From Candidatus Bathyarchaeota archaeon (GTDB lineage Archaea > Thermoproteota > Bathyarchaeia > TCS64), in contig CAVYVF010000023.1 in assembly GCA_963771885.1 (NCBI GenBank), positions 768,001 to 832,000 of the forward strand: a stretch of 64,000 bases of DNA, in the 5' to 3' direction. Below, piece after piece: positions 9,298-28,362 of this stretch. The position numbers and the translations under genes were made by a program. Below the pieces are notes generated by a model. The model searched no databases, was not told the DNA's origin, and saw only the letters and a list, made by a program, of their open reading frames with translations. Position 1 is the first letter of the stretch, and the number at the start of each line of letters is the position of its first letter.

Positions 9298-10428
9298 TTG
9301 AATTCACGCGAGAGAGTCGAAGCTGCACTCGCACACAGGGAGCCCGATAGGCCCCCAGTCGACCTTGGCGGCACGGTCTCGGGCATACACAACGAGGCCT
9401 ACACGAAGCTGGTAGAGGCGCTCGGCCTCCGGCTCATGACTAGGGTCGACCCATGGGACGTGCAGCGGCTCGCAAAGCTCGATGAGGCAGTGCTCGAGAA
9501 GCTCGGCGTCGACTTCCGCCACATCTCCCTTAGGTCTGTGCCCGGCTCCGGCGGGTTAGAGCCGGATGCCTCCGGGAGGCCCTGCTTCGTAGACGAGTGG
9601 GGTATCAAGTGGGGGCGGAACCCGCACTACTATGACATGGTCGCCCATCCGCTGGCGAACGCGTCGATGGAGGACCTAGCGGACTACCCGTGGCCCGACC
9701 CCGGAGACCCGAGGAGGTTCGAGGGGCTCAGGGAAGAGGCGAAGCGTCTCCACCATGGCACCGACTTTGCGGTACAGGCAGATGCCTTCTTCGGAGGCAT
9801 ATATGAGTGCGCGTGGTGGATGAGAGGCTTCTCGGCTTTCACCGTCGACATGTATCGCCACCCTGAGTTCGCCAACCTGCTCCTCGACAAGATACAGGCC
9901 ATCTACCTCGACTTTTACACCCGATATTTAGACGTCGTAGGCCCATACGTGCAGGTCTTCGACTATAATGACGATATTGGGATGCAGACTGGGCCGCTGC
10001 TCTCTCCCGCAGTGTTCCGGCGCTATCTCAAGCCTCGCTACGCGGAGATATTTAGGCTGATTCACTCGAAGTCGAAGGCGAGGATATTCATGCACACATG
10101 CGGAGCCGTGCGCCAGCTCATCCCAGACCTAATCGAGATCGGGCTCGACGTTCTCAACCCTGTCCAGCCTCTCGCGTCGGGCATGGAGATCAGCGGGCTC
10201 AAACGCGACTTCGGCGATAATCTAACGTTCCATGGCGGCGTCGACATTCAGAGACTCTTACCCAATGGGTCGATTGGGGAGGTGGAGACGGAGGTGCGAC
10301 GCATCTGTGAGGTCGGTGGCGCAGGGGGAGGTCTCATACTCGCTGGCGCTCACAATATTCAGGCGGATGTTCCACCTGGAAACATTCTAGCGATGTTCAG
10401 AGCGGTGGGTAGTATGGGGGTTGAGTGA
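9298..10428 (+). CDS. MtaA/CmuA (URO-D superfamily) methyltransferase
   Basis: MNSRERV..AL.HREPDRPP, DEWG, FMHTCG, LNPVQ, GGVDIQ, HNIQADVP. Confidence 0.85.
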   Translation: MNSRERVEAALAHREPDRPPVDLGGTVSGIHNEAYTKLVEALGLRLMTRVDPWDVQRLAKLDEAVLEKLGVDFRHISLRSVPGSGGLEPDASGRPCFVDEWGIKWGRNPHYYDMVAHPLANASMEDLADYPWPDPGDPRRFEGLREEAKRLHHGTDFAVQADAFFGGIYECAWWMRGFSAFTVDMYRHPEFANLLLDKIQAIYLDFYTRYLDVVGPYVQVFDYNDDIGMQTGPLLSPAVFRRYLKPRYAEIFRLIHSKSKARIFMHTCGAVRQLIPDLIEIGLDVLNPVQPLASGMEISGLKRDFGDNLTFHGGVDIQRLLPNGSIGEVETEVRRICEVGGAGGGLILAGAHNIQADVPPGNILAMFRAVGSMGVE

Positions 10429-21014: not shown

Positions 21015-21999
21015 CTATAATTCGTAGACTGTTCCCGGGACCTTGGGGAATGGCTGAGTTTCACCTATGTGGCTCGCTCCCGTTATCCAGCTCACTATGC
21101 GCTCGATGCCGATGCCCGCGCCGGCGGTTGGCTTTATCCTGCCTTCCTTCGCCAGCTTCAGGATGAGGGCGAAGTTCTCCTTCCTTACGTTCTCCTTCTC
21201 CATCTTCGCCAGCATCTTGGGGTACTCGCACTCCCTTCGGGAGCCGGAGAGGACCTCGCCGAAGCCCGGCATCATGAGGTCGTAGTTGTCCCACCTGCCT
21301 GTCTCGAAGTCTTCGAAGTCGTAGAACTCGCGGGGTAGGTTGATGACCCATGCGGGTTCCTTGATTTCGGTGATCAGCTTCGCCTCCCAGCCGGCGCCGT
21401 ACTTCTCTTCGAGCTTCGACTGCGTCGTAGGTGGCGAAGGGCTGCTTTGTGATCTTCAGCGCGTCGAGTCTGCCTAGGAGCTTGAGGTCTTCGGCTCTGT
21501 CTCTCTTCAGGCTCTCGACGAGGTCGGTGACGGCGCCTTCGACGAGCCTCATTATGTCGGAGGAGGAGGCGCCTCTCGCCTCGAAGTCGAGTTGGGTGAA
21601 CTCGTAGACGTGTTTGCCTGTCTTTGCCCTCTCAGCTTTCTCTATCCTGATGTTTGGGCTGAGGATGAAGAGCTTGGGGTAGGCGAGGCTGGAGGCGATG
21701 AGCTTGTGGACGATCATGCTTGACGTTGTGCGCACGGTCTCGCCGTAGATGTCGACCTCGATCCGTTTGTCGATGGATGCGCTCGGGTCGGGCCAGAGGG
21801 GGTCAGTTGACTTGGAGAGCGCCACGGGGAGGAGCCACTGGAACCCGTTGACTGTGAAGTAATTGGTCAGGTTGCTGAGCGTGTAGGTCATGACCCTGCC
21901 TATGCAGGACTTTCTGTCAAGCTCCTCTTCTGAGAGCCTGTCGAGTGGCTTGGGGATGTCATCTGCGATGCGGCCTTCTGTTGCTAGTTCAGTCTTCAA
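21015..21999 (-). CDS. asnA: Archaeal asparagine synthetase A (AsnRS-like); frameshift near 21420
   Basis: STDPLWPDP, SMIVHK, SPNIRIE, HVYEFTQLDFE, then after the shift PREFYD, GEVLSGSRRE, AGAGIGIER, FPKVPG. Confidence 0.9.
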
Positions 22000-24530: not shown

Positions 24531-25140
24531 CTATAGTGGCAGGTACTCGCGGAATAACTCGATGAAGATTCTGACAATCGTCGGCAAAATGATCAGTCCA
24601 GCGAGCTTGCCGATAAAGTCCATGTTGACCGGCCACTCTTGAGCGGTTTGCACATATTTTTCTTTCAGCTGCACCGCTTGAAGCCCTGCCATAATGACTA
24701 GGACCTGGTTTACTTCGCTTCCAACTGCCTTTGCCTTTTCAAGTTGTTGCAGGAGATTATCGGACTCTATTCTTAGTCTCTCCATTCTAACTCCCTTCAA
24801 CTTCACCAGCGCGTCGTGGATGCTGTATAGTGGGAGGACTACGATTGCCGCTCCAATAATTACGAAGAGTAGGTATGGTGAAAATACGACCTCGGTCCAA
24901 AAGACGGAGCTGTCCTTAATGAGTGGCATTGCTACGGCGATGCTGATTGTGATAAAGTAAAAGAGAGCATAGTTTAGTATCAATCTCATAAGTTCATGAA
25001 AGCCTTCACCTGCTCTGTCAAGTAGCTCAGGTCGGAGTTTTTGGCGTGATACAGTGACGATTAGATAAAATATTCCGAGGAACATCCAGACTCCGGTATC
25101 GAAGTTCGAAGAATAATGCCCAGGCTATGTTCCCGATCAC
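24531..25140 (-). pseudogene. 5'-truncated membrane protein
   Basis: The ORF 24531..25085 continues upstream across a frameshift (VIGNIAWALFF/FDTGVWMFLG) and runs into the non-coding repeat region; lower GC. Confidence 0.5.
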
Positions 25141-25670
25141 TCGCGCGCGCATCCAAACCGCTGTTAACCATAGCGACGGGCTGTTAACCCCCGATCACTG
25201 CAGCCCATGGTCTGTAAAGAAAAGTAGCGCCCCATTCAGCGCGTAATGCTATCAGAATAGGCTCTAGTCCCTCATCCTCCAGTACACGCCGTACCATGCT
25301 AGGAGGTGTTTTCCAGGAAAATTCGACTTAACACTTTTTACAGATTTAACACTACAACTAACACCCTTAACATGTTCATTTACACCACTTTACACGCTTA
25401 ACAGCGCTTAACAGAGGACTTGATACTACTTAACACCTTGAACATGTAATTTTCTAGCGCACCTACATACATCTATACTCGCGTATGCGCGCGGTTCCAC
25501 TAGGAAACATAGTTCAACCTGCCGCGATGAAAGGTCCCCCCTACTCGCGAGCGGGCCGACAAGTAACACCGTTTCTAGTAACGTGCGCGCTTCATGATGT
25601 ACCAAGTTAATGATCGCCTCTGATAACGTTCATAACAGTTCTCAAGCATCAATGCTGGAGGCTCAAGAGT
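25141..25670. other. Candidate replication origin (or terminus) region
   Basis: Long non-coding gap, phased hexamer array, ORB-like GTTCCACTAGGAAAC at 25494-25508, palindrome TTTTCCAGGAAAA at 25309-25321, apparent G/C skew switch. Confidence 0.45.
25328..25444 (+). repeat. Tandem array of 11 TT(A/T)ACA-type hexamers, about 10-bp period
   Basis: Copies start at 25328, 25337, 25346, 25358 (CTAACA), 25367, 25379, 25389, 25398, 25408, 25430, 25439 (TGAACA), with a degenerate TTGATA at 25420. Confidence 0.9.
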
Positions 25671-25762
25671 CTATTTGGAAGGTGACCCTTCTGCTGGTGA
25701 CTCATTCGGCTTCATGATAGCTACCTGCGTGCGCGTAGTCTTCGCACGACAGGTTTTCCCAT

Positions 25763-26719: not shown

Positions 26720-28229
26720 ATGAGTGACTCTGCACTACTATTGGAAAAGAAGATCGCCGGAGATCTTAGAAAAGCCCAGAACAACATGTTCAGCGGTAAA
26801 AATGATGACGCCTGGGGAATAATCGAGGCGGTGTCGTCGGATATTGAGCAGTTAAAAAGTATTAATCCCAACAGTCGCTCGATAGCCTCGTTTGAGCAAC
26901 AATTCAATCGCCTAAGACAAGACTTGGAGAAGAAGCTGAAGAAAGGCGCCGGCTCAGCTCCGCCAACCTTCACAGCTCCGACACCACCTAAAATTTCGTC
27001 AACCCCTGTCGCGGCTCAACCGTCGACTCAGGTGAAGCCTTCGAGTGAAGCCAAGTTACCCGGCGGAGTGACTAAACGTCTCGAAGAGATGGAGAAGCGG
27101 CTTCAGCAGGCTGAGGATTCTTTGAATCAGGCTGAGAGCCGAGTGTCGATTGATAGGGCTAAGCACCATTTGGAGTATGTGCGGGGCTCCTATGAGGAGT
27201 TGGAGAGAATGTATAAAGAGCATACGAATCACCCCGATGTTCAAACTATTAAGGGAAAACTCTCCGCTTTAACGAGTAAAATAGATGCAATTCAGGAGAA
27301 GCTTGAATCCGGAGCGGCGTCAGCCGAGGAAAACAAGTCGCGTGTAGAGAGCCGCTCGAAGGATTGGGTGGAGAAGATACAGCCATACCTGCCGGGCGGT
27401 GCCCGTGAGAAGCAACTCGAGCTCTCGCGAATAAGGGGGAAGCAGAGCCTCATAAACCAAAAAAACCTGTTGAACGAGGCGAAGAACCTACTAAAGGAAT
27501 TCGAGTCCTCGGATTGGTCAACCGGGAAGACTGAGGAACTTGAAAAAGCCGAAAAAGACCTCAAGCATAGAATAGATGAGGGACAAACGGCTCTTCGAGC
27601 AGAGCATCCAAAGCATTTTGGGTGACGCAGGGTCCATAATCGACGAAAAACTGGCGCAGTTCAAGAAGGATAGTGCCTGGCGTAAGGATGCGTCTCTCCG
27701 ACCAAACTGGCTACTAAGAGGAGACCGTCAGAGCATCGATGAGAAGATGGGTCTAGTCGATGAACTTGTTCCGGAGATACTCCCCAAAAATAACCCGGAG
27801 CTACTCGACCTGAAGAACAGGCTCACCGAACTAGAAGAGGAGAACCGTGGACGCCTAGCTGAGTTGCCGAAGAGAACCTTCATGGCACCCTCAAAATATT
27901 CGGGGGCAGACGCGGATACCCTGAGGGAGAAAGCGGCGCAGTTGGTCAAGGACATCGTTCCTGAAGCCACGATCCTGAAGGTACATCTGATTCGTGAGGA
28001 TTGGCGGGTGGAAGACGTTGTGGAGCATACCGACACCAGCAGAACGGCGATTCACCGCAGAGTAACATATCATATGCCAGCCCAGGTGGCGGCGCGTGTC
28101 GGTGACAAGGTACAACTGTATAATGCGCACGTCGCAAAAAACCAGCGCCCCGACGGTTCATTTGACCGCCTGTATGGAAACCTCGAGGAATACCCGAAGG
28201 AAATAGCGCCTGAAAACCTGCCGAAGTAA
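26720..28229 (+). CDS. Hypothetical helical/coiled-coil protein; frameshift near 27587
   Basis: Two overlapping ORFs join on removing one A from GGACAAACGG; Pro/Ser/Thr linker after the N-terminal helical bundle; AT-richer than the flanks. Confidence 0.7.
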
Positions 28230-28287: not shown

Positions 28288-28362
28288 TGGTGGACTGGAG
28301 GGGAATTGAACCCCTGACCTCCGCCATGCCAAGGCGGCGATATACGGCTAATCTACCAGCCC
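28288..28362 (-). tRNA. tRNA-Ala(GGC), CCA encoded, no intron
   Basis: GGGCTGG/CCAGTCC acceptor stem with G3:U70; CCGCC-TTGGCAT-GGCGG anticodon arm; AGGGG-TTCAATT-CCCCT T arm; TTTAAA box about 30 bp upstream. Confidence 0.93.

Follow-up and report, generated by a model that had tools for sequence, protein, structure and literature searches.

A phased hexamer array in a Bathyarchaeota genome, probably the relic of a two-armed element linked to an HTH and coiled-coil gene

Staphylococcal pSK1 Par and pneumococcal RocS are single HTH and coiled-coil proteins that aid segregation without a dedicated motor. In the KfrA system of plasmid RA3, the operator is described as five 9-bp repeats in two orientations, with a KfrA-KfrC complex and with filaments on cognate DNA (PMC7783346). 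Plasmid centromeres of type Ib, type II (parC-ParR) and type III (tubC-TubR) are described as upstream repeat arrays, sometimes split in blocks, with ~10-bp repeats bound on a protein superhelix, and TubY combines an HTH with a long coiled coil (PMC5016525). The cryptic integrated elements described in Thaumarchaeota are small modules without signature genes, defined with att sites (PMC6563490).

We analysed a 64,000-nucleotide stretch of a Bathyarchaeota genome, hereafter the window (G000:C23:768001-832000; coordinates without a prefix are positions in it), which holds an array of short hexamers. Intact copies of the same element stand before a gene pair. Like KfrA/KfrC and the operator O_K (RA3 of IncU, and IncP-1), the intact module has a protein with an N-terminal HTH and a long alpha-helical tail lacking an ATPase, here predicted, together with a second helical protein and short 9-bp-spaced repeats in two orientations upstream of the gene (PMC7783346). 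Unlike KfrA, the large protein is archaeal and has ~615 aa compared with ~355 aa (PMC7783346), and no KfrA model appeared among Pfam matches to E 0.05 or in NCBIfam. The cis site also differs from the KfrA operator, since it has 15-20 hexamers in two arms of periods 20 and 9/9/12 bp around a ~115-bp spacer and lies mostly upstream of the promoter. Unlike KfrA systems, which belong to conjugative plasmids with ParABS, the module is known here only in integrated form and has no adjacent IncC/KorB partition system. The module resembles the plasmid centromeres in that its repeat array is upstream of an operon and split into blocks (PMC5016525). It is unlike them in having no ParA, ParM or TubZ motor gene beside close-type copies and in its candidate binder, a large HTH and coiled-coil protein and not a small RHH or winged-helix one. 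With pSK1 Par and RocS the module shares, by general description only, an HTH with a coiled coil and the lack of a dedicated motor. It is also a small integrated module without signature genes, like the cryptic elements of Thaumarchaeota (PMC6563490), although neither an integrase nor an att repeat was found here. By analogy, the module likely works in the manner of KfrA/KfrC or of centromere-like maintenance, while being a member of neither class.

Very little is known of how mobile elements are segregated and maintained in Bathyarchaeia. More important than the window copy, which is debris, is the intact module: it offers a compact and testable pair of a precisely built cis site, whose hexamer is known, and a candidate binder, and a natural variant exists in which domain and motif have changed together. 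In literature that was mostly open access, we found no published description of the intact module, and the combination of intact array and gene pair appears to be undescribed there.

The window array and its homologous copies

Direct listing of sites gave 12 TTAACA-type hexamers on the forward strand at 25328..25444, which form the right arm of the element. They start at 25328, 25337, 25346, 25358, 25367, 25379, 25389, 25398, 25408, 25420, 25430 and 25439, with spacings of 9, 9, 12, 9, 12, 10, 9, 10, 12, 10 and 9 bp (mean 10.09). Phase coherence is 0.84 at 10.1 bp and 0.77 at 10.5 bp, and the array, spacings and ~10.1-bp phasing claimed in a first-pass annotation of this DNA were borne out. 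Nine of the hexamers are exact TT(A/T)ACA, two carry one mismatch (CTAACA, TGAACA) and one is degenerate (TTGATA). The window has 10 sites of [TC]T[ATG]ACA within 130 bp, whereas 5000 Markov simulations of the region never gave more than 5, and a whole-genome scan reached 9-10 sites at three places only, the next best value being 4. We conclude that the hexamer array is real and beyond chance. A contig from an independent run covers 25101-25472, crossing the left seam of the element (below) and reaching 29 bases beyond the end of the block shared with other copies, and thus the locus is not an assembly artefact. The search for structured RNA gave an Rfam match only for tRNA-Ala, and folding z-scores of -1.2 and -0.4 were unremarkable. 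Coding of a peptide repeat by the array was ruled out, because gene-bearing copies have 10- and 13-bp gaps and a 20-bp period.

A DNA search of 41 genomes aligned the forward-strand block 25150..25443 to two other copies, at 94% identity without gaps to G003:C62 and at 89% to G000:C2; the block corresponds to positions 127-454 of the element model. By this homology it is a remnant of a bipartite element and comprises part of a left arm, a spacer and the whole right arm. The left-arm stump (25162..25218, reverse strand) has reverse hexamers at 25162 and 25182, which are 20 bp apart, and at 25213, 31 bp further on. The two opposite-orientation copies of GCTGTTAACC noticed earlier are indeed present, and the additional reverse site at 25213 (TGTAAA) had been overlooked. 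The central spacer (25219..25327) measures 115 bp from the last left to the first right site, is 48-54% AT and contains a palindrome at 25309-25321. The palindrome had been pointed out correctly, but it is broken in the gene-bearing G003 copy. Similarly, the inverted flanks reported on either side of the array both exist as strings, but the right one (25448-25464) is absent from both homologous copies; a flank match of this kind is uncommon (16/3000 simulations and 48/6661 intergenic 40-mers) under a definition that is post hoc.

The shared block stops at 25443, and both the right flank and an ORB-like box lie beyond it. The flank falls in 25444..25493, a stretch of alternating purine-pyrimidine filler that includes the right (CG)n seam (25480-25493) and is absent from homologous copies. 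The ORB-like box is present at 25494-25508, but it is outside the element and forms the end of a decayed phosphoglycerate-kinase (PGK)-like scrap (25494..25547, reverse strand). The scrap matches G000:C1:80947-80998 at 77% over 52 nt, ungapped (E 6e-4), within an ORF that matches PF00162 PGK at 2e-45, and comparison in frame showed two stops. The PGK match of the box region appears moderate but coherent. A further scrap (25589..25713, reverse strand) is 74% like a gene end on G000:C10 (E 1e-13).

On the left, a (CG)n seam (25141..25150) joins the element to a broken gene: homology to the G003 and C2 copies begins at 25150, and homology of the left gene ends at ~25141. Of the broken gene (24531..25141, reverse strand), which codes for a membrane protein of ~349 aa when whole, the 3' half remains; it has a frameshift near 25101 and is cut off by the seam. 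It matches residues 162-349 of P0053/P0054 at 74-77%, with ~15 more residues in another frame, and a homologue of this neighbour was found in 1 of 17 other genus genomes, as a scrap. The X6 contig (one contig, low depth) has 5 extra bases at 25101, follows the membrane-protein gene and departs to other sequence after 25143. The contig mentioned above that covers 25101-25472, which comes from run X3, carries more intact hexamers (one contig, low depth). The DNA behind the 3' end of a tRNA-Ala(GGC) (28288..28362, reverse strand), which is the site of the relic, varies between genomes.

(CG)n runs of 8 or more nt fall outside long ORFs in 82 of 137 cases on the four main contigs, where non-coding DNA makes up 14-19%. 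Such runs are seen at joins of gene scraps and at element ends at many loci, including 25141-25150, 25480-25493 and L041:1003-1012. Two other stretches of the window look frameshifted, namely 21015-21999, an asparagine-synthetase-A/tRNA-synthetase-like gene in two frames, and 26720-28229, two overlapping ORFs matched as one stretch in G007:C77. Close to the other terminus-like skew peak, G000:C23:250090-251856 is a long non-coding relic that contains G/C-run repeats as well as (CG)n seams.

Taken together, we conclude that the window array is very probably an orphan relic of the HTH and coiled-coil module. The gene pair was not found in G000 (92% complete), and for this reason the window array is probably inert now. 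The alternative offered in the first-pass annotation, a relic repeat array of a mobile element, is supported in substance, the window holding a truncated copy of the cis element linked to the HTH and coiled-coil gene.

The full element consists of two inverted arms, TGTTAA at a 20-bp period and TTAACA at 9, 9, 12 and 9 bp, separated by a spacer of ~115 bp. We aligned 14 copies, with a mean column identity of 39%, and tallied the geometry in nine lineages. Intact left arms carry 3-9 reverse hexamers; their gaps are exactly 20 bp in 28 of 52 cases, the last gap is usually 30-33 bp, and the left arm of the ninth lineage is degenerate. Right-arm gaps are 9 or 12 bp in 53 of 73 cases, and the 9,9,12 start seen in the window recurs in eight of the nine lineages. 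The spacer is 113-116 bp in five of nine lineages and 103, 137 and 149 bp in three, with one value corrected by eye. Conservation across the hexamer is T84 T95 A86 A100 C100 A94, which partly follows from site picking. Judged from these alignments, the geometry of the element outlasts its sequence. From the start codon it is 10-110 bp upstream to the beginning of the left arm and ~350 bp to the right arm, distances that exceed those of a simple operator. In distant elements the hexamers are spared by substitutions (23/152 compared with 81/261, p 0.0002, with a mask that is partly circular). In orphan copies they are not clearly spared, at small numbers (5/94 compared with 13/200, 11/121 with 24/276 and 10/143 with 25/252), and four-fold sites near orphan copies are substituted at 7/87 and 23/226.

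The distribution was established by pattern searches of 71 family and 401 class genomes, followed by a profile search of the fetched loci. The long element is present in 6 of 18 genus genomes (G000, G003, G007, G011, G012 and G016) and in metagenome contigs L068 and L071, and L067 has its edge only. Pattern searches, which may miss degenerate copies, did not find it in the other 12 genus genomes (69-94% complete), one of which is G013 (6 contigs, 91% complete), nor in the single-contig genome G021 of another genus. Pattern matches outside the genus were short triplets or chance, and a reversed-pattern control matched 7 of 71 family genomes. G000 holds three copies (the window, C2:107 kb and C22:306 kb), and at least seven gene-less arrays exist besides the window copy. 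The window and C2 copies have common alleles at 25200-25244, unlike G003:C62 and the X3 contig, a hint in these alignments of possible gene conversion between the two copies. Separately, in five genomes of genera g5 and g8 (L008, L009, L010, L012, L013), a conserved TTAACA triplet with 9-bp spacing immediately precedes a gene that is divergent from an MFS transporter; the triplet is likely an unrelated operator with the same hexamer.

The linked gene pair and a proposed mechanism

An array stands directly before a ~615-aa HTH and coiled-coil gene in all six close-type loci with upstream DNA (G003:C62, G011:C55, G012:C8, G016:C26, L068 and L071), five of which have both arms. This count omits loci whose contigs start inside the gene (G005, G008:C10, G014, L069, L070, L072 and L074). 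The left arm reaches the start of the gene, which points away from the array. A ~170-aa helical gene follows in 5/6 loci, and the contig ends in one; in G016 the ~170-aa gene is in pieces. A seventh locus, G000:C2, retains only a 5' stub of the HTH and coiled-coil gene, adjoining tRNA-Arg.

The large protein has weak HTH_23, HTH_28 and HTH_38 matches at residues ~8-46, below cut-offs, and SNVTVS, its putative recognition helix, hardly varies among proteins that are 33-57% identical to the first. In the AlphaFold model (mean pLDDT 62), long helices come after three short ones at pLDDT ~80. The ~615-aa product is predicted to be a DNA-binding HTH protein with a long coiled coil. The small protein is all-helical, with 31 matches among 1.84 billion representatives, and its small-ORF family was found in 6 of the 70 family genomes but in none of the 330 other class genomes that were searched. 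It matched no Pfam family and nothing in Foldseek, and its best VIA-align hit (Z 5.9 over ~56 residues) reflects common helical hairpins; the large protein had no Foldseek match at E 0.001. Missing fold matches of either protein do not show a new fold. PHROGs, NCBIfam and PADLOC gave weak coiled-coil matches only (LmuB, JetC, SMC), and there are no ATPase motifs. In the ESM Atlas, look-alikes of the HTH part come mostly from Nitrososphaerota with scores of 0.76-0.87 (below 0.9, and hence leads), and there were none for the small protein. Complex prediction of the large with the small protein scored 0.00, which carries no weight for or against pairing. A weak profile match (E 0.012) of positions 72-129 of alignment A1 to a Caulobacter UPF0335 protein, which we take to be GapR, a binder of overtwisted DNA, is no more than a lead.

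A derived clade (support 100/97), nested among the HTH types, carries another N-terminus. Both of its loci with upstream DNA have no TTAACA array and instead have phased GG(G/A)AAA repeats, and the upstream regions of the HTH type have 0 GGGAAA in 6/6. The change of N-terminus and motif is one evolutionary event. Among the indirect signs of reading of the repeats by the N-terminal domain, this single swap of domain and motif is the best. In the variant module (L073:6761-9842; L082:1-1825), the coiled-coil protein has a different N-terminus, which is basic, and the module includes GG(G/A)AAA repeats together with a divergent gene of the zinc-finger coiled-coil kind; in L073 it sits at the same tRNA-Arg site as the G000:C2 relic. 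Distant HTH-type homologues (G081 and G016:C9/C15/C22) have no array. In G016:C22 (L079:8789-15010), an operon-like run that includes an AAA ATPase and a ParB_N gene finishes with distant homologues of the gene pair; this is perhaps a fuller parent element.

A host factor, such as histones or a winged-helix regulator, could instead read the array for the module promoter, with the HTH protein not being the binder. AA/TT steps at ~10-bp periods with GC-rich linkers suit wrapped DNA, and the element has 10.0-10.1-bp periods with AA/TT steps and GC-rich linkers; in addition, unrelated genes of two other genera have short TTAACA triplets at their starts. However, the full hexamer is conserved beyond the needs of bending (partly by site picking), the motif changes together with the N-terminal domain, and long arrays are absent elsewhere in the genome. 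We consider reading by a host factor improbable.

We favor the view that the intact element is likely a binding platform of the HTH and coiled-coil protein in a small mobile or accessory module. The suggestion in the first-pass annotation of a protein nucleation site is supported in substance by the tie of the array to this gene. In the mechanism that we propose, the N-terminal HTH would read TTAACA, and many copies of the protein would load cooperatively on one helical face along both arms. The coiled-coil tails could then bridge the two arms to give a wrapped or filamentous complex, in which the small helical protein may be a partner. The bridged complex would repress the gene-pair operon and would assist the retention or segregation of the parent element, in the way that KfrA/KfrC serve broad-host-range plasmids. 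At the window, an integrated module would have decayed through deletions sealed with CG-rich patches and would have lost its genes. Beyond the linkage of array and gene, we infer every step of this mechanism. Taken as one statement, that the array is a relic and the element a platform of the HTH and coiled-coil protein with a maintenance mechanism, we find the proposal on balance somewhat probable.

Pure decay accounts only loosely for the at least seven further gene-less arrays. A bolder proposal, which we regard as doubtful, is that an undescribed class of archaeal mobile elements uses the array and the two proteins as a two-armed device, without a motor, for segregation or replication, that the specificity of this device can be reprogrammed by a joint swap of N-terminal domain and motif, and that hosts keep gene-less arrays as decoys titrating the protein of incoming elements, or as captured centromeres.

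Mobility of the element

Neighbors of the element differ at every locus, and at four loci it lies 3' of a tRNA (Ile, Glu, Lys and Arg). The C22 copy fills the gap that separates a PK_C gene from htrA and measures ~800 bp in both G000 and G003. The orthologous gap of 56-603 bp is array-free in 12 of 13 genus loci, and the 13th has another neighbor and no array. All copies of the element are chromosomal and lie amid host genes, and no circular form was seen. ORF lists showed no integrase, transposase, primase, helicase or partition NTPase beside close-type copies and no ParA, ParM or TubZ motor in six gene-bearing loci. A duplicated tRNA end (att) was present in none of eight loci, where decay could have removed both att and integrase, and no array was found near 20 integrase loci. 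Viral contigs yielded no homologue of either protein; they contain 111 stretches with four GTTAA at 20 bp, and a second arm was seen in 0 of the 80 examined. The proteins had no tblastn match in 72,556 plasmids. With no integrase, att, replicase or motor and no virus or plasmid homologue, the word "mobile" rests on distribution and not on machinery.

We weighed whether the arms are recombination sites, either terminating a miniature transposon or serving a trans-acting site-specific recombinase as arm-type sites, such that the array moves alone. The element has the form TGTTAA...TTAACA, copies lacking the genes turn up at new sites, and the common sequence stops just past the right arm in most copies. 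However, the genes are outside both arms, and the left ends of orphan copies vary (in the gene, promoter, left arm or spacer), several of them coinciding with (CG)n seams as expected for deletions. Target duplication was not noticed by eye, there is no adjacent recombinase, and the PF00589 tyrosine recombinase was not found in 4 of 18 genus genomes (G000, G004, G011 and G017), including G000 and G011, which carry the long element. These observations make movement of the array alone quite unlikely.

The replication-origin question

The first-pass annotation had proposed a candidate replication origin with an ORB-like box. Inverted sites around a central stretch are indeed a likeness to archaeal ORB and Orc1-Cdc6 origins as described (PMC4010727, 10.64898/2026.08.15.744077, PMC12141716). 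Unlike those origins, the element has no paired ORBs, G-string, AT-rich element or initiator gene, and it is not conserved in the genus. The ORB-like box is single, with no G-string and no partner within 500 bp, and an exact twin of its pattern lies inside an ORF at 10369. No AT-rich unwinding element was found in the window spacer. The window has no initiator gene, as had been stated, with cdc6 only at C2:266 kb and on C17, and no array was found near any of seven cdc6 loci. Array-free relatives are collinear at the window locus, and the array was present in 0 of 10 regions examined; this is the absence at the syntenic locus that had been named beforehand as counting against an origin.

The cumulative skew of the contig, suggested as a check, gave a divided answer: the window GC skew does peak at 23-28 kb, but its sign is terminus-like. 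We measured skew contrast at four-fold sites, comparing genes pointing away from a site with genes pointing towards it. At the window site the contrast was -0.17 with 45-kb flanks (lowest 1.2% of 347 positions) and -0.08 with 90-kb flanks (2.9% of 276 positions). The C22 copy has the opposite sign (+0.14, +0.18), and the C2 copy has no skew extremum. In array-free G013, which is collinear at both sites, the C22 site gave contrasts of +0.07 and +0.14, and the window site +0.02 and -0.03. Given the comparison with G013 and the terminus-like sign, skew gives no support to an origin at the window, and at C22 it is independent of the array. A few operons with strongly C-ending codons seem to produce the window extremum, though they do not explain it in full. 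An inversion breakpoint was rejected as its cause, because neighbors keep their order in G007, G008, G012 and G013. The notion that the C22 copy created an origin is weakened by the same trough in array-free G013.

A chromosomal origin of new architecture at the window site, with an ORB and far from its initiator, would fit the skew extremum, which ranks in the extreme 1-3% of positions, and also the finding of only one cdc6 in the family and of no ORB cluster on the main contigs; moreover, the convention of a G-rich leading strand is not established for this lineage. Against this, the skew is terminus-like by the usual convention and opposite to the C22 copy, the syntenic G013 site has no extremum, and the element is truncated and patchy, its ORB-like box a coding scrap and its array absent from the relatives' regions. 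We conclude that the chromosomal-origin reading of the window site is largely refuted, and we give it a very small probability. The array is most likely not a chromosomal replication origin.

The element could also be an iteron-type origin of a plasmid-like archaeal element, whose arms bind an initiator, either the HTH and coiled-coil protein or the small one, that recruits the host helicase to the spacer, the window copy being dead. Inverted arrays around a spacer of fixed length recall the inverted-ORB origins described in 10.64898/2026.08.15.744077, and capture of origins from extrachromosomal elements has been described in archaea (PMC4010727). One strand is C-rich in 14 of 15 copies, and the complete orphan G000:C22 lies at an origin-like skew trough. 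However, spacers are 38-54% AT across nine lineages and lack an unwinding element; the two proteins match no family or fold of initiators, ATPases or primases; and the trough at the C22 site is also seen in array-free G013 (contrast 0.14, compared with 0.18). We consider an iteron-type origin unlikely; no replication protein was found beside any copy. The binding platform of the HTH and coiled-coil protein remains our preferred reading. For origin prediction in these genomes, the locus is a caution: decayed accessory DNA can bring together boxes that resemble ORBs, phased arrays and skew extrema.

The strongest skew extrema in G000 are at C2:377 kb and C22:305-335 kb, of one sign, and at C23:255 kb and 793 kb, of the other. 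No ORB cluster was found in its main contigs. A single Cdc6/Orc1 gene per genome is present in G013, G016, G012, G021, G047 and G000. A second cdc6, of 65% identity, is on the low-GC contig G000:C17, and the small G000 contigs (GC 44-50%) may come from another population (contamination 6.7%). The motif CACTTTCACTCACC-CTCC is conserved 65-95 bp upstream of the single cdc6 in six of seven loci, with a variant in the seventh (G000:C2:265784 (L132), L131 and L316-L320), and is followed in some by TCCACTGGAAC. It is a candidate autoregulatory or true ORB-type site of the family, and a near copy of it is found at C22:96209.
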